64,000 nucleotides of DNA from an uncultured virus (IMG/VR IMGVR_UViG_3300036822_000086). Lineage: Duplodnaviria > Heunggongvirae > Uroviricota > Caudoviricetes. Where the stretch lies: the IMG/VR virus record IMGVR_UViG_3300036822_000086. The stretch is one strand, 5' to 3'. A program made the translations under genes and the position numbers. Of the stretch, positions 2,518 to 63,748 are shown piece after piece (position 1 is the stretch's first letter; each line of letters starts with the position of its first letter). A model generated the notes under the pieces. The model was not told the DNA's origin and searched no databases. It worked only from the letters and a program-made list of their open reading frames with translations.

Positions 2518-3261
2518 TCAAGCTGATCGATCACGGGCGGCGATCAGCGCCGCCAACTCTGCTTCTTTCCGCTTGATCTCTTTATTAAGCTGAGCGACGG
2601 AGTAGCCACCTTCGCTCGCCTTGCCGATATCGAAGCGGCCCCAACCGAGCTTGCGACTAGCGCCAACGCCGATCTCGCGACCGCAGAAGCCGATGAAGTC
2701 ATCAACCTTTTTCGGATCGATAACTTCCTCGCTGAACTTCACTTCAAACGCCGCTGAGAACGGACCAACATACTGATTGCTGCGCAGCGCTCTTTGGTTG
2801 CTCAGCTTGTTGCCGGCGCCAGCGGTGACGACAACGAAGCGCTCCCAGACGCCGTCCGCTTTGTGCTTGCCGGTGAATATGTCGGACACGGTCAGCACCG
2901 TTCGCAAATTTTCGGCGCGGGCAATGCGGATCGCGCTTGAGGCCAAGCCACAAGCTTGCGCGGCCATGCCGTATATCTGATGCGCCGGGATCACGATCTC
3001 GGTCGCATCGTGGCCGTCAGCGTCATCGAGACTGGCCGCCGTATAGAACTGGCGATCGGCTTCGACTTCCAGCGCTTCGTAATCGGCCATGCTCATGCCC
3101 TTGGTGGCCAGATAGTCGCGCAAGACCTTGACGCGCTTTTCCTCCGAGCGCACGCGCTTGGTGCCGGATTCCTTCTGGATGTTGATCAGCCGCTCGCGCT
3201 GCGGCCAGTACGGATGCGCGATGTAGCCTTTCAGGAATGAGACTTGGTAGGCCCGTTGCAT
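2518..3261 (-). CDS. stand-alone RAMP/Cas7-like RNA-binding protein (247 aa)
   Basis: AGGAG RBS 8 nt before ATG 3261; RAMP-type motifs IVIPAHQIYGMAAQAC and C-terminal Gly loop GREIGVGASRKLGWGRFDI. Confidence 0.7.
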   Translation of the reverse strand: MQRAYQVSFLKGYIAHPYWPQRERLINIQKESGTKRVRSEEKRVKVLRDYLATKGMSMADYEALEVEADRQFYTAASLDDADGHDATEIVIPAHQIYGMAAQACGLASSAIRIARAENLRTVLTVSDIFTGKHKADGVWERFVVVTAGAGNKLSNQRALRSNQYVGPFSAAFEVKFSEEVIDPKKVDDFIGFCGREIGVGASRKLGWGRFDIGKASEGGYSVAQLNKEIKRKEAELAALIAARDRSA

Positions 3262-3281
3262 GGTCAATGCTCCTAATGACT

Positions 3282-3449
3282 GGCGTTGGCGTCGGCGAAG
3301 GCGTTGACGGTGACGTCGGCGATGACGAGGGCGATGACGAGAGCGGCGACGGCGACGATGACGAGAGCGTTGGCGTCGGCGTAAGCGGTGGCGTCGGCGT
3401 TGGCGTCGGCGATGGCGGTGACGAGGACATAGTCGATGTCGTAGGCGCT
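3282..3449 (-). repeat. hexamer array 1, 28 units (NN-CGYC on minus)
   Basis: ggcgtt ggcgtc ggcgaa ggcgtt gacggt gacgtc...; CG in phase in 27/28 units; fills the gap between the stop at 3455 and the RAMP RBS. Confidence 0.95.
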
Positions 3450-3667: not shown

Positions 3668-4032
3668 GGAAGCTCCGAGGGCGATGACGTCGGCGAAGGC
3701 GTTGACGGCGGCGTCGGCGATGACGCTGACGATGGCGTTGACGGCGGCGTTGGCGAGGGCGAAGACGTTGACGGTGACGTTGGCGACGACGTTGGCGCTG
3801 GCGCTGGCGGGGGCGCTGGCGAAGGCGTTGACGTGAGCGATGACGATGACGAGGCCGTCGGCGTAGACGATGGCGCGGGCGTTGGCGATGGCAGCGAAGT
3901 TTTGATGGCGCGCGCGGTTGTCTTATCAGGAATGTCGTAGCGTGGTTTGAGAAAATGACGGCGCAAGCTGCGCAACAGCGGATCAACGCCGACCGTCAAC
4001 CCATATCCCGTTTCCGTTTCCTGATCCGTCAT
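3664..4032 (-). CDS. possible ORF whose Ser/Thr/Pro tail is array 2
   Basis: ATGA-coupled to 4029-4223; the low-complexity tail may only be read-through of the array. Confidence 0.4.
   Translation of the reverse strand: MTDQETETGYGLTVGVDPLLRSLRRHFLKPRYDIPDKTTARAIKTSLPSPTPAPSSTPTASSSSSLTSTPSPAPPPAPAPTSSPTSPSTSSPSPTPPSTPSSASSPTPPSTPSPTSSPSELP
3680..3895 (-). repeat. hexamer array 2, 36 units
   Basis: ggcgat gacgtc ggcgaa ggcgtt gacggc...; CG in phase in 35/36 units. Confidence 0.95.
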
Positions 4033-4223
4033 ATCAACCGCTCCCTCTCAGCATTGGCCCGCAGATCGGCGACGATTGCTTCCATGATGGAAATCTCGCG
4101 CCGCATTTGCTGTTCTGTCATTTTGCCTTCGGCAACCCGGCGCGGATAGACGCGCAGCCGGTAGCGCAATTCGCGCTCGATGCAGGCCAACTTGTCTTGC
4201 GCGGTCCATTGATCATCGGCCAT
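4029..4223 (-). CDS. small phage protein
   Basis: MADDQWTAQDKLACIERELRYRLRVYPRRVAEGKM...; ATG at 4223. Confidence 0.7.
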   Translation of the reverse strand: MADDQWTAQDKLACIERELRYRLRVYPRRVAEGKMTEQQMRREISIMEAIVADLRANAERERLI

Positions 4224-4692
4224 AGCGACACCGCCAGTGCAGAACTCCGTGGCGATAGAAATTCTCGCGCCACCCGGGCGAGCAGATATTGCGCGTTGAC
4301 GAAGGCGAGGACGCTGCCGCAGACGAAGGCGAGGACGCTGGCGAAGGCGAAGGCGTTGACGTGGACGTTGACGGAGGCGATGACGTAGCCGTGGCCGCAG
4401 ACAGAGACGTTGACGCTGGCGACGGCGTGGGCGTTGGCGTAGACGGCGTTGGCGTAGACGTGGGCGAGGCCGAGATCGAAGGCGTAGACGTTGACGTGGG
4501 CGTCGGCGATGGCGGTGGCGTTGACGATGGCGTTGGCGCCAACCGCTGCACGATCGTGAGGCCGCCACTGGACGTCGCGACCGGCGCAGAATCTTGCCAG
4601 GAATCCCCGATAAAGAATCCGACGCCGAACGCCAGCGGCGCGATGATCAACACGTCGCGCAATTCACTCTCCGATCTCGACAGCGAGATCAT
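4213..4692 (-). CDS. possible membrane-anchored ORF whose S/T/P region is array 3
   Basis: Hydrophobic VLIIAPLAFGVGFFIG followed by array-encoded S/T/P. Confidence 0.4.
   Translation of the reverse strand: MISLSRSESELRDVLIIAPLAFGVGFFIGDSWQDSAPVATSSGGLTIVQRLAPTPSSTPPPSPTPTSTSTPSISASPTSTPTPSTPTPTPSPASTSLSAATATSSPPSTSTSTPSPSPASSPSSAAASSPSSTRNICSPGWRENFYRHGVLHWRCRYGR
4298..4540 (-). repeat. hexamer array 3, about 40 units
   Basis: gacgaa ggcgag gacgct gccgca...; one 3-nt register slip at 4442-4444. Confidence 0.95.
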
Positions 4693-8355: not shown

Positions 8356-8418
8356 AACTTCCCCACACAAACCTGCCCGGCGTTGGAGCGCCGGGCAAAA
8401 CCCCGAAGGAAACCGAAC

Positions 8419-9450
8419 ATGCCTACCACCGACATCAACCTCGAAATCGAGAATCCGATCACCGCGCTCGACGCGGTCGATCAAATCATCATGCACCTGC
8501 TCGAAGGCCAGCCCGTCATGTTGTGGGGCGCGAGCGGCATCGGCAAGTCCGAGCTTGCGCATCAGATTGCGCAAAAGATGGCCAGTAAGTTGATCCCCTT
8601 CCACACAAACATCCGCGAAAGCGTGGACGTGCGCGGCTTGCCCGTGCCCGATCTCGCCAGCGGCACGACGGTGTGGCTGGCGCCGAAGGAACTGCCGAAG
8701 TCTGACGGCAGCGACGGCCCGACGCTGTTGTTCATTGACGAGATCAACACCGGCACGATGCAAATGATGTCCGTCATGATGCAACTCGTGCTCGATCGCC
8801 GCGTCGGCGATTATACGCTGCCCGACAATTGCGTGATCCTGGCGGCCGGCAACCGCAGCAAGGACTCGCGCGCTGTCATTCAGATGCCGGTCCCGCTGCG
8901 GCGCCGCTTCGCCCACTACACGATGGTGGTCGATGTTCCGTCGTGGATCGCCCACGCCAAGGCGACCAACTTGGCGCCCGAGCTTGTCGCGTTCATCCGG
9001 TTTCGGCCGGATTGCTTGTACCGCGATGCTGACGGCGACCAGAACGCGTCAGCCAACCCGCGCACGATCTATCGCTGCGGGCCCTACATCAAACAACCAC
9101 CCGCGCGCCGCTTGCGCGCGTTCACCGCAATGGTCGGGAAGGTCGTTGCTTCCGAGATGGAGTCATTCGTGAGTCTCTACCAATCACTCACGAGCCTCGA
9201 TGACATCCTGGCCAACCCGACCACGGCCAAACTTCCGAGCGAGCCGAGCGAGCGTTACGCCGTGTGTACGGCAATCGCCAGACTTGCTGACCGGAAGACT
9301 TTCCCGAATGTGATCGCCTACGCCAAGCGGCTGCCGCGTGAGTTCGAAGTGCTCACGGTGACCGACGCGGTGTCGCGCGATGACAAGCTGGCCAATGTCG
9401 CCGCCTACGGCAAATGGGCGGTCGAAAATTCGGACGTGACTGTCCAGTAA
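8419..9450 (+). CDS. MoxR/AAA_5-type AAA+ ATPase
   Basis: Walker A GASGIGKS, Walker B LLFIDEIN, AAGNR sensor, LRRRF Arg finger. Confidence 0.9.
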   Translation: MPTTDINLEIENPITALDAVDQIIMHLLEGQPVMLWGASGIGKSELAHQIAQKMASKLIPFHTNIRESVDVRGLPVPDLASGTTVWLAPKELPKSDGSDGPTLLFIDEINTGTMQMMSVMMQLVLDRRVGDYTLPDNCVILAAGNRSKDSRAVIQMPVPLRRRFAHYTMVVDVPSWIAHAKATNLAPELVAFIRFRPDCLYRDADGDQNASANPRTIYRCGPYIKQPPARRLRAFTAMVGKVVASEMESFVSLYQSLTSLDDILANPTTAKLPSEPSERYAVCTAIARLADRKTFPNVIAYAKRLPREFEVLTVTDAVSRDDKLANVAAYGKWAVENSDVTVQ

Positions 9451-9469: not shown

Positions 9470-11020
9470 ATGAACCGCCTCGAAATGGAGCGCGTCGCCA
9501 AAGACAAGGTGATGAAGGCGCGCGCTGCCATCATTCAAGCACGCAAGTTTTATGGCGTGCTGGTCGCGAACGTCGAGCCGGTGCCATGCTGGTCAATTCC
9601 ACGCATGGCCACCGACTCGATCAAACACTACTACAACCCGCAATTCGTTTGCGAGTTGTCGCAAGAGTTCCTGGAAGGCATCCAAGTTCACGAAAGCGAA
9701 CACGATGCCCGCCACCATTCGACGCGGCGCCGTGGGCGCGATCCGCTGCGTTGGAACAAGGCGTGCGATTATTCGATCAACCCTGACATTCTCGCGGAAG
9801 GGTTCAAGCTCCCCGATTGGGTGCTGAACCGTCCCGAGTTTGCCGGCATGGCGACCGAAGACATCTACCGCGTCTTGGAAATCGAGGAACAGCAACAGCA
9901 GCAGCAAGAAGACGCGGACGATGACGCTGACGATGACGGAGACGATGACGAAGCCGATGACGCGAGCGCTGACGACGACGTTGACGATGACGCTGGCGGT
10001 GACGACGGCGATGCCGGTGACGAAGACGAAGCCGCTGACGGTGACGCAGACGGTGACTCGGACGATGCCGACGACGGCGACGTTGACGACGGCGATGCCG
10101 ACGACGGTGCCGATGGCGCTGGCGGTGACGGCGACGTTGACGAAAACGAAGGCGGCGACGAGGGCGACGACGGTGACGAGGCCGGCGGCACTAACGAAGG
10201 CGAAGGCGCAGACGACGGTGCAGACGTTGGCGGCGACGATGGCGACGACGTCAGCGCAGACGCGGACGGCGACGTCGATGAAGCCAATGCTACGCCGCGC
10301 CCCGGCTACGAGCAACAGCCTTGGGATTGCGGTGGCGTGCTCGACGCGCCCGCCGAACAAGCGCCTGATCTCGACGCCAAGTGGGACGTCATCGCGCATC
10401 AAGCCGCTGCACTCGCCAAGAAGGCCGGCTGCTTGCCCGGCCATTGGGAGTCGGAGCTAGAGCGGCGCAAGACGCCGACCGAAGATTGGCGCGAAGAAAT
10501 GCGCCAGTTCTTCGACGCGGGCGCCAGCCGCTCAGAAACGTGGAACCGACCGAATCGCCGGTTCGCACACACCGGGTTCGTGCTGCCCGGCACGCAGCGC
10601 GACGGCATCAACAAAGTCGCGTTTCTTGTTGATACGTCCCTGTCCATGTCTGACGACGTCCTGAACAAAGTCGGCAACGAGGTTCAGGCGGCGATGGACG
10701 CGGGCATCATCTCGGAAGCCGTGGTCGTCTACAACGACACGCGGGTCAATGCAGTCGATCGCTATCTCGACGGCGACCAAGTCGAGTTCAAGGCGGTCGG
10801 CCGTGGCGGCACGGACTTGCGACCGGCGTTCAAATGGATCGATGAAAACGATCCCGACTGTTCGCTGATCGTGGCGCTGACCGATCTTGAGATCGGCGAC
10901 CCTGGCCCGGAACCGCAGGCGCCCGTCCTTTGGGCGGCGTATGGCGACCCTCGCATCGTGACCTACCTGAAAAGCACGTTGCCTTGGGGCGACGTGATCG
11001 ACGTCGGGACGGACGCCTAG
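9470..11020 (+). CDS. metallopeptidase-like + VWA domain protein (DUF2201 type) with acidic linker
   Basis: HESEH zincin motif, WNKACDYSIN, MIDAS DTSLS, GRGGTD, LTDL. Confidence 0.88.
   Translation: MNRLEMERVAKDKVMKARAAIIQARKFYGVLVANVEPVPCWSIPRMATDSIKHYYNPQFVCELSQEFLEGIQVHESEHDARHHSTRRRGRDPLRWNKACDYSINPDILAEGFKLPDWVLNRPEFAGMATEDIYRVLEIEEQQQQQQEDADDDADDDGDDDEADDASADDDVDDDAGGDDGDAGDEDEAADGDADGDSDDADDGDVDDGDADDGADGAGGDGDVDENEGGDEGDDGDEAGGTNEGEGADDGADVGGDDGDDVSADADGDVDEANATPRPGYEQQPWDCGGVLDAPAEQAPDLDAKWDVIAHQAAALAKKAGCLPGHWESELERRKTPTEDWREEMRQFFDAGASRSETWNRPNRRFAHTGFVLPGTQRDGINKVAFLVDTSLSMSDDVLNKVGNEVQAAMDAGIISEAVVVYNDTRVNAVDRYLDGDQVEFKAVGRGGTDLRPAFKWIDENDPDCSLIVALTDLEIGDPGPEPQAPVLWAAYGDPRIVTYLKSTLPWGDVIDVGTDA
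9911..10276. repeat. hexamer array 4, 61 in-phase units inside the VWA gene
   Basis: gacgcg gacgat gacgct...; CG at positions 3-4 in 58/61 units, no slip. Confidence 0.9.
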
Positions 11021-56731: not shown

Positions 56732-56941
56732 TTATGGGGCATACAGCAAACCGGTGTCGTGGTCGCGGCAAATCTCGACGTTACCCACCTGAAAAATGTC
56801 TAGCCCTTTCGCGCTGCACTTTCCCGCTTGCTCGACCGAGCCTGTGTGCGCGAAGTAGTACAAGGCGACCAAGCCGGCGATGATGATCAGCAGCGCCGCC
56901 ACCAGATGTCTGCGTTTGATACGATCGCGGAAGTCGGCCAT
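56732..56941 (-). CDS. small membrane protein
   Basis: One TM helix; ATG 1 nt from the end of array 5. Confidence 0.6.
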   Translation of the reverse strand: MADFRDRIKRRHLVAALLIIIAGLVALYYFAHTGSVEQAGKCSAKGLDIFQVGNVEICRDHDTGLLYAP

Positions 56942-56942
56942 G

Positions 56943-57002
56943 GGCGTTGACGGAGACGCTGACGAAGACGAGGGCGAGGCCGATGACGATGACGGCGACG
57001 CA
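56943..57002 (-). repeat. hexamer array 5, 10 units
   Basis: ggcgtt gacgga gacgct gacgaa gacgag ggcgag gccgat gacgat gacggc gacgca; fills an intergenic gap. Confidence 0.85.
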
Positions 57003-63305: not shown

Positions 63306-63524
63306 TCAGCGGCATGCTACAATCCGGCCTGCAACGCCGCCGTCATCGTCACCGCCATCGCTCCCGACGACGTCTTCGTCTACGTCTACGATTACCCCCG
63401 TCATCGAGCAGTGGCAGCACGGTTCCATGCAGACCACCGGAACGCCCGGCTCGATCTCAGGCATGTCGGCGTACTCGACCGCGAGGAAGCGAGCGCCGTG
63501 GCAGCACGGGCAGACGGCCTTCAT
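63306..63524 (-). CDS. small Zn-ribbon protein
   Basis: CPCCHG...PCCHCSMTG; ATGA-coupled. Confidence 0.55.
   Translation of the reverse strand: MKAVCPCCHGARFLAVEYADMPEIEPGVPVVCMEPCCHCSMTGVIVDVDEDVVGSDGGDDDGGVAGRIVACR
63333..63392 (+). repeat. hexamer array 7, 10 units
   Basis: aacgcc gccgtc atcgtc accgcc atcgct cccgac gacgtc ttcgtc tacgtc tacgat. Confidence 0.65.
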
Positions 63525-63700
63525 GCGTGCTTCGCAAGCGTGATGCTGCGCTTGATCTTTTCGGCGCGGCCCGGGCGGCGATCGATCGCGATGCGCCGAA
63601 CCTTGGGCTTTTTGAACCACACAGCGGTCGCGCGCTTGTTGCGATCGATCTCGCGGGTCACCTTGTAATCACGCGGCAGAATTGGCCGAATTTTTCGCAT
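63521..63700 (-). CDS. small basic protein
   Basis: MRKIRPILPRDY...; the frame is also open upstream to 63757. Confidence 0.45.
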   Translation of the reverse strand: MRKIRPILPRDYKVTREIDRNKRATAVWFKKPKVRRIAIDRRPGRAEKIKRSITLAKHA

Positions 63701-63748
63701 GGCGTTGTCGCTGGCGTTGCCGATGCCGTAGGCGTGGGCGTCGGCGTG
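63701..63748 (-). repeat. hexamer array 8, 8 units
   Basis: ggcgtt gtcgct ggcgtt gccgat gccgta ggcgtg ggcgtc ggcgtg; abuts ATG 63700. Confidence 0.7.

Follow-up and report, generated by a model that had tools for sequence, protein, structure and literature searches.

A hexamer array antisense to the acidic linker of a phage VWA gene: a dual-constraint element and candidate RNA guide

We analyzed a 64-kb window, the first part of the 87,331-base record of a soil phage with direct terminal repeats, and found that 366 bases at 9911-10276 are a dual-constraint element. Their plus strand encodes the acidic linker of a VWA protein, and their minus strand carries the CGYC-NN code of the arrays that accompany a family of stand-alone RAMP proteins. 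Judging from these patterns, the same DNA probably has two roles, as protein linker and as RNA guide. In this reading, subunits of the phage's Vipr-like RAMP would bind a putative antisense linker RNA at six-base intervals and leave the NN pairs exposed as a gapped guide. A unit of six bases keeps the reading frame. We put at roughly one half the probability that the RAMP coats a minus-strand linker RNA and that this RNA serves as a gapped guide. Should the array prove functional, a working gene would carry a programmable guide overprinted in antisense, and the locus would show how an ordinary linker can become a guide. The odd codons can be recoded silently, a change that would destroy the array but leave the protein as it is.

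Register and codon use in the linker

The array lies in frame between the DUF2201_N and DUF2201/VWA domains of an intact ORF (PF13203, E 1e-33; PF09967, E 2e-19; both above the Pfam cut-off) whose product has 222 homologs. The AAA ATPase encoded directly upstream is one that we take to be MoxR-like, as in AAA/VWA pairs. An earlier note on this DNA had described 61 in-phase GRCG-NN units. The 61 in-phase hexamers are there, but strict GRCG occurs in only 47 of them (among the others, seven units have GCCG and four begin with A), so that GNCG-NN is the better description of the plus strand, whose product is a D/G/A/E/V linker. The CGYC-NN strand is antisense to the gene, as had been claimed.

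The remaining counts agree with that description. CG is in register, at unit positions 3-4, in 58 of 61 units; odd codons end in C in 60 of 61 cases; and even codons often end in T or A (T 27, C 16, A 12, G 6), against the genome's GC3 bias (0.70 over 24 long ORFs). From codon frequencies in this phage, taken with the following base into account, 35.5 C-ending odd codons would be expected (log10 P for the excess, -14.8). As the earlier note argued, protein-level selection alone cannot give the alternation. The same amino acid is written differently by position: Asp is GAC at 37 of 37 odd and 8 of 18 even positions, and Ala is GCC at 7 of 7 odd and 0 of 12 even positions. The two wobbles are equally silent, yet one is near-invariant and the other uses all four bases; the invariant G of the CGYC scaffold is the silent position of the odd codon. 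The linker has a CG-register run score of 49; of 500 codon shuffles none exceeded 12, and of 500 synonymous shuffles none exceeded 24. A register far beyond both the codon-use and shuffle nulls supports the proposed nucleotide-level constraint.

We then compared linkers across DUF2201 homologs, extracting 101 linkers from 135 locus hits; 69 were distinct and 65 long enough to score. The register is present in the window and in its sister linker L008 (both score 49), and the other 63 score at most 12; the best GNCG count per 30 units is 28 in each of the two and at most 19 in the 63. Equivalent period-6 linkers in RAMP-less homologs, which the earlier note had named as the sign of simple slippage, number zero among the 63 other distinct linkers. 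Among 50 DUF2201 virus records, 13 of them near-complete, a single one had a match to the RAMP profile: the near-complete sister contig G006, from which L008 comes; within the linker-array clade, the RAMP gene was read in the window phage and in G006. With the register restricted to a RAMP-bearing clade and a scaffold matching that of the RAMP family, the linker's tie to the RAMP arrays is supported. The antisense case is one clade, and the correlation between linker and RAMP therefore amounts to one evolutionary event. The PF13203 gene is absent from five other RAMP records.

Across 842 kb of 12 RAMP-less DUF2201 phages, our array filter passed only a GCC run and the linker of phage G044, which scores 18 over 32 units with an entropy of 2.58 and C at both parities. 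Partial alternation occurs in several RAMP-less linkers (asymmetry 0.62-0.71, compared to 0.92 in the window linker); it mostly reflects EG dipeptide runs, because synonymous shuffles reach it in six of seven such linkers. Many ordinary DUF2201 linkers have about half of their best 30 units in register, which makes in-place remodeling into an array plausible. The element may have arisen from such a D/E/G linker, remodeled in place or by unit-wise recombination once a RAMP system was present.

Selection and sequence diversity in the linker

Valine-coding NN pairs make up 5 of 61 units in the linker, compared to 63 of 158 across the remaining minus-strand arrays of the phage (Fisher p 2e-6), and the protein layer is therefore also under selection. 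The linker scaffold leans to Asp, with CGTC in 36 of 61 units. There are 6-9 valines per linker in four clade linkers, and 0-1 in 83 of 104 scored linkers. The linkers of four clade proteins (P0001-P0004) are strongly diverged, while their best-aligned domains are 86-95% identical. Glu and Val nonetheless keep to one parity in P0001 (17/17), P0003 (23/24), P0004 (17/18) and, with one phase step, P0002; the exceptions are boundary residues and that phase step.

Between the window and G006, an 82-codon linker core, chosen after looking, has 0 silent and 10 amino-acid changes; the 392 flanking codons within the VWA gene have 20 silent and 3 amino-acid changes. Nine of the 10 changed core codons differ at scaffold positions only, and NN is identical in the first 40 of 41 core units even as the scaffold changes. 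When all 59 aligned units are counted, the differences at unit positions 1 to 6 are 2, 11, 2, 3, 5 and 10, and NN differs at 15 sites; the end blocks, where the NN changes lie, may have been replaced. Within the array, the unit alignment with the sister places every insertion or deletion as one or more complete units. Among contigs from other soil runs, NN changes occur at 10035 and 10048; unrelated low-complexity contigs dominate the alignments in the linker. Judged from these comparisons, selection acts on both layers of the linker, with silent sites frozen in the core and valine-coding units depleted.

The NN pairs are also diverse. We scanned 16 of 64 parts of a viral collection for microsatellites of ten GRCG-ND units and obtained 120 loci with 117 distinct arrays (three loci were unscored, and 40 have less than 1 kb of flank). 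In 114 of the 117 arrays, NN entropy is at most 2.4 bits and the DNA examined holds no RAMP. The linker reaches 3.34 bits, and long RAMP-family arrays range from about 2.7 to 3.8 bits. Values above 3.2 bits belong to two RAMP loci (one of them G006) and to L287. The linker contains one repeated 3-unit NN word, compared to 1.4 in shuffles, and so has neither the homogeneous units nor the repeated words of a microsatellite.

Two side observations concern further arrays. L287, from record G067 (40 kb, 68% complete, no RAMP match), is a CGCC-NN array with 21 units and high NN entropy; it is either an orphan array or one whose RAMP lies in the missing part of the genome. L204, L224 and L252 are phage proteins with in-frame X-Ala repeats (ASAYASAYA, ANANAYA); their CGCC scaffold is perfect, but NN entropy is only about 1 bit, and no RAMP lies close by.

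A Vipr-like RAMP protein and its arrays

The presumed reader of the CGYC-NN arrays is the RAMP encoded by the window phage (Table 1). We modeled it from an alignment of 57 homologs (pLDDT 93.9), replacing a poor single-sequence fold (pLDDT 41). The top Foldseek and VIA matches of the model are Csm, Cmr and Cas7 chains (Foldseek E 4e-6 for Csm/Cmr), and superposition on a Csm chain gave Z 11.7 and rmsd 3.1 over 151 aligned residues. The predicted structure is a RAMP fold (a type defined by RRM core, thumb and G-loop) encoded outside a CRISPR locus, and a Gly-rich motif near its C-terminus is invariant in the 57 homologs. Its sequence had no significant match in Pfam, NCBIfam, PDB sequences or annotated phages. 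The protein matches phrog_4652 (E 8e-5), as does a gene of phage SUSP1 (E 1e-96). The SUSP1 gene encodes 195 aa and is flanked by GGY-NN repeats on its own strand, a layout from which we identified it as vipr. An HHalign comparison of the two is weak and short (64 C-terminal columns, probability 44%, E 2e-4). By these profile matches, the window RAMP is a remote homolog of the SUSP1 Vipr. Vipr chains are absent from the fold-search matches listed, and the protein may still belong to that family. The tandem repeats of the window include no CRISPR-type repeat-spacer array, and the window has no match to Rfam families.

Table 1. Genes and hexamer arrays of the window
Feature	Position	Strand	Basis or context
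Stand-alone RAMP, predicted Cas7/Csm3-like fold, remote Vipr homolog by profile, 247 aa	2518..3261	-	model, fold search, phrog_4652
CGYC-NN array, 28 units	3280..3447	-	ends just before RAMP ribosome-binding site
CGYC-NN array (array 2), 36 units	3678..3893	-	under S/T/P-reading ORF
CGYC-NN array (array 3), 25+16 units, 3-nt phase step	4296..4538	-	in frame in ORF 4213-4692
AAA ATPase gene, directly upstream of VWA gene	8383..9450	+	Pfam AAA_5, E 4e-5
DUF2201_N metallopeptidase-like domain, acidic linker and VWA-like domain, 516 aa	9470..11020	+	Pfam
CGYC-NN hexamer array, 61 units	9911..10276	-, antisense to VWA gene	counts, scaffold profile, NN entropy 3.34 bits
CGYC-NN array, 11 units	56935..57000	-	runs into ATG
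Short CGYC-NN array, 12 units, NN entropy 2.2 bits	60386..60457	+	local sense strand
Short CGYC-NN array, 9 units	63335..63388	+	
Short CGYC-NN array, 8 units	63699..63746	-	directly before ATG

A helix of about 25 residues at the RAMP C-terminus (2518-2620, minus strand) resembles the end of ORF 463-747 (LDKEIKCKEAEL and LNKEIKRKEAEL, respectively). Close homologs are about 30 residues shorter than the window RAMP.

RAMP-family loci carry period-6 arrays on the strand of the RAMP gene, with CGCC, CGTC, CGGC, TGGC or CGAC scaffolds followed by NN. Given this shared strand, we infer that the RNA strand reads CGYC-NN, which in the linker is antisense to the VWA gene. Arrays scoring at least 10 occur in 15 of 17 RAMP records; G003 has none, the array of G061 lies beyond the 40 kb examined, and G064 was covered in part. 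In the CGYC sense, the linker scaffold agrees with 1617 units from 70 family arrays: the first C is kept in 59 of 61 units (94% in the family) and the G in 60 of 61 (99%), the third base is degenerate and the fourth is C or else only T in both. A fixed scaffold alternating with hypervariable NN, the VIPR-type layout, is thus found in the linker as in the family arrays. The linker is the only array in the 17 RAMP records found antisense inside an identified gene. The earlier note placed S/T/P-reading ORFs over arrays 2 and 3, and these are present. Ribosome-binding sites or start codons lie at the ends of several arrays. The nine arrays of this genome have no conserved leader or tail, and a search of their nine 3' flanks for a structured tail found no 7-mer common to more than two.

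Four further observations concern individual arrays. ORF 4213-4692 (minus strand), which covers array 3, is hydrophobic in an N-terminal stretch and ends in a short tail containing Cys and Trp; the NN pairs of array 3 are unchanged from the sister over 28 aligned units, and this ORF may be a second dual-coded gene. The L005 locus (record G003) encodes a RAMP homolog of 53% identity and has no hexamer array in its 19.8-kb record. An array upstream of the RAMP gene in another phage (G002:23692-23925) shares a 6-unit NN string with the linker; none of 20 shuffles reached six, a chance of very roughly 0.02, and the flanks do not extend the match. Other cross-record 6-unit NN matches comprise six score-12 pairs, compared to 0-1 per shuffle, and lie partly between related phages.

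VIPR systems pair a Vipr RAMP with GGY/NN vrRNAs (bioRxiv 10.64898/2026.04.26.720920; structures, 10.64898/2026.04.26.720927). As those reports describe them, all seven types are pentanucleotide and a characterized homolog reads NN as an address (10.64898/2026.04.26.720920), with one Vipr protomer binding one repeat and exposing NN (10.64898/2026.04.26.720927). Like VIPR so described, the window family has a phage-encoded stand-alone RAMP without CRISPR repeats and tandem units of scaffold plus variable dinucleotide on the RAMP-gene strand, just as GGY-NN lies on the strand of the vipr-like gene in SUSP1. Its unit, however, is six nucleotides (YGNC-NN) and not a pentamer, and its arrays have 7 to about 100 units, compared to 9-16 per vrRNA in the published description. 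The arrays of this genome lack a conserved tail; 10.64898/2026.04.26.720920 shows tails for type II, which may not define all types. Window-family arrays also lie in frame in genes, the linker one antisense, whereas the published guides, as presented, are intergenic pentamer RNAs, the screen in 10.64898/2026.10.21.760802 being restricted to intergenic DNA; how new guides arise is, to our knowledge, not explained there. The main texts of 10.64898/2026.04.26.720920, 10.64898/2026.04.26.720927, 10.64898/2026.10.15.759431 and 10.64898/2026.10.21.760802 contain no hexamer wording, and our literature search found no hexamer or in-gene VIPR array, although supplementary tables may list proteins of this RAMP family.

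Other systems resemble the window in part. Type III RAMPs (Csm3/Cmr4) are the best structural matches of the model, and the Class 1 spacing given in 10.64898/2026.04.26.720920 is likewise six bases, but two of six bases vary in the window arrays, not five. The orphan or decoy vrRNAs of phage satellites (bioRxiv 10.64898/2026.10.15.759431) are likewise guide arrays away from a vipr gene; as reported there, they are non-coding pentamer RNAs with a vrRNA tail, whereas the window array is a hexamer on coding sequence in a genome with its own RAMP. By its sequence grammar, the linker array is an array of an undescribed hexamer VIPR-like variant, with a presumed guide function.

We searched for targets by reading NN with 0-3 skips, and by 3-base readings, for 61 family arrays against 4.8 and then 9.1 Mb of DNA (largely related phages, both strands counted), and the scores equaled those of shuffles. 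The 1-nt skip rule reported for VIPR gave no target with window-family arrays. Exact seeds of 8-9 units, with one window per array, were then matched to viral and genome collections, in which true targets may be unsampled. For the linker core, a 1-nt skip gave 15 viral and 10 genome seed matches, none of which extends (best, 15 of 40 flanking bases), and a 2-nt skip gave 6 viral and 9 genome matches (best, 14/40); array 3 with a 1-nt skip gave 12 matches (best, 13/32). Promoter and terminator scans found nothing usable near the linker, with no minus-strand sigma-70-like site between 7921 and 16140; the minus-strand block is ended by a terminator-like hairpin with a T run at 17001-16968. Predicted folding of the linker is little better than that of shuffles (z -1.4 for the minus strand, -2.4 for the plus strand).

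Competing explanations and in-gene arrays

The linker could be an ordinary low-complexity sequence that arose by six-base slippage and codon-context bias and resembles an array by convergence. Acidic D/E/G linkers are normal in the DUF2201 family, 10 of 65 linkers (window and sister included) have some period-2 signal compared to codon shuffles, GRCG-type hexamer microsatellites are common in viruses without a RAMP, and dipeptide-repeat linkers (PT, DE and GE) are likewise in-frame period-6 DNA of low complexity. Slippage, however, homogenizes all six positions. The 114 low-entropy viral arrays are of this kind, whereas the window linker has diverse NN pairs, no repeated NN words, silent sites frozen in its core and two equally silent wobbles of which only one varies; nor did the 63 other linkers or the RAMP-less phage DNA hold an equivalent. 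We strongly disfavor slippage and consider it very unlikely. It is also hard to credit that the VWA mRNA (GNCG-NN) is a decoy that sequesters CGYC-NN array RNAs by pairing with them. Duplexes with four arrays are predicted to be strong (-180 to -286 kcal/mol), and for two of these arrays the pairing is stronger than in any of 30 synonymous shuffles, but the other two do no better than shuffles, unit-order shuffles pair about equally, the RAMP-less L056 linker pairs with array 2 as well (-288 compared to -286 kcal/mol), and the linker favors GACG, which mismatches the commoner CGCC units. The pairing is generic and lends no specific support to a decoy or antisense-regulator role.

Capture is a more serious contender, though an unlikely one: array DNA would have recombined into a permissive, partly similar linker, with whole-unit exchange keeping the register and protein selection removing valine, and would have no guide role of its own. 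The whole-unit indels and replaced-looking end blocks fit such exchange, as do arrays scattered across the genome and into other genes, and an orientation opposite to VWA transcription. Yet the longest NN string shared with other arrays of this genome is three units, which is chance level and leaves recent capture from one of them without support; the scaffold is Asp-tuned, unlike possible donors; and the silent sites are frozen in the core and the register is kept in four diverged linkers, where a relic should decay at the odd wobble. We also think it improbable that the linker is a loading site whose scaffold alone matters, where the RAMP would coat the minus strand (antisense RNA or displaced single-stranded DNA) and regulate the AAA/VWA operon in cis, with NN giving no target address. 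In its favor are the failure to decode a target for any of 61 family arrays in 9 Mb, the arrays ending at ribosome-binding sites or start codons, the lack of a conserved leader or tail, and the internal duplication of some family arrays (L160, G059 12929). Free filler would not be expected to stay identical over 40 consecutive core units while the scaffold changes, though, most family arrays have non-repetitive NN strings, and the characterized homolog reads NN as an address, as described in bioRxiv 10.64898/2026.04.26.720920.

Of the three functions that the earlier note had offered, the dual-coding guide fits best, but its target was not decoded. Several observations weaken it: there is no target under the rules tried, no minus-strand sigma-70-like site around the linker and one clade; L287 is an array without a RAMP match and G003 a RAMP without an array; NN differs at 15 sites over 59 units, and the core was chosen after looking; partial alternation occurs in RAMP-less linkers, with G044 scoring 18; no second antisense-in-gene array occurs in the 17 RAMP records; and NN changes at two sites in other soil runs.

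The hexamer code is well suited to genes. By construction, a stop codon cannot occur in any of the three sense frames of CGYC-NN or in the antisense GNC-GNN frame; the NCG-YCN frame encodes S/T/P/A, and the antisense frame encodes D/G/A and then D/E/G/A/V, the residues of which DUF2201 linkers are made anyway. Four of the six frames of the six-base code can encode protein, so guides can lie concealed in genes and escape intergenic screens. In-frame S/T/P arrays lie inside RecT-family genes of the RAMP phages L002, L003 and L174 (RecT Pfam E 1e-9, 2e-11 and 2e-3, the last below the cut-off). Some in-frame S/T/P arrays could be ordinary PT linkers, because the controls do not match the most GC-rich records. 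We tentatively suggest, as a possibility that we would not favor at present, a hexamer VIPR branch with a frame-preserving, stop-free guide code. Functional guides would be written into linkers on either strand (S/T/P in sense, D/G/E in antisense), coding linkers would be a reservoir and perhaps a source of new guides, and the six-base period would bridge pentamer Vipr and Class 1 Cas7.

Outside the window, this genome has a 34-unit CGYC-NN array (G000:74475-74678) that forms an in-frame S/T/P linker in a long ORF without a Pfam match; its counterpart in the sister, G006:69786-70154, has about 63 units with mostly different NN. Three family arrays (L154:10604-10963, L156:10632-11267 and L161:9642-11287) are split into blocks of about 5-13 units, by a recurring short mark in TGGC-type arrays and by a one-base slip in L161, and these blocks look like discrete guides. 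Beside the RAMP gene in two further loci (L147:9508-9957 and L157:7699-9166) are CGGC-NN arrays of 74-90 units that translate as Gly-X (GDGSGYG-like), and glycine-rich phage ORFs of this kind may be such arrays.
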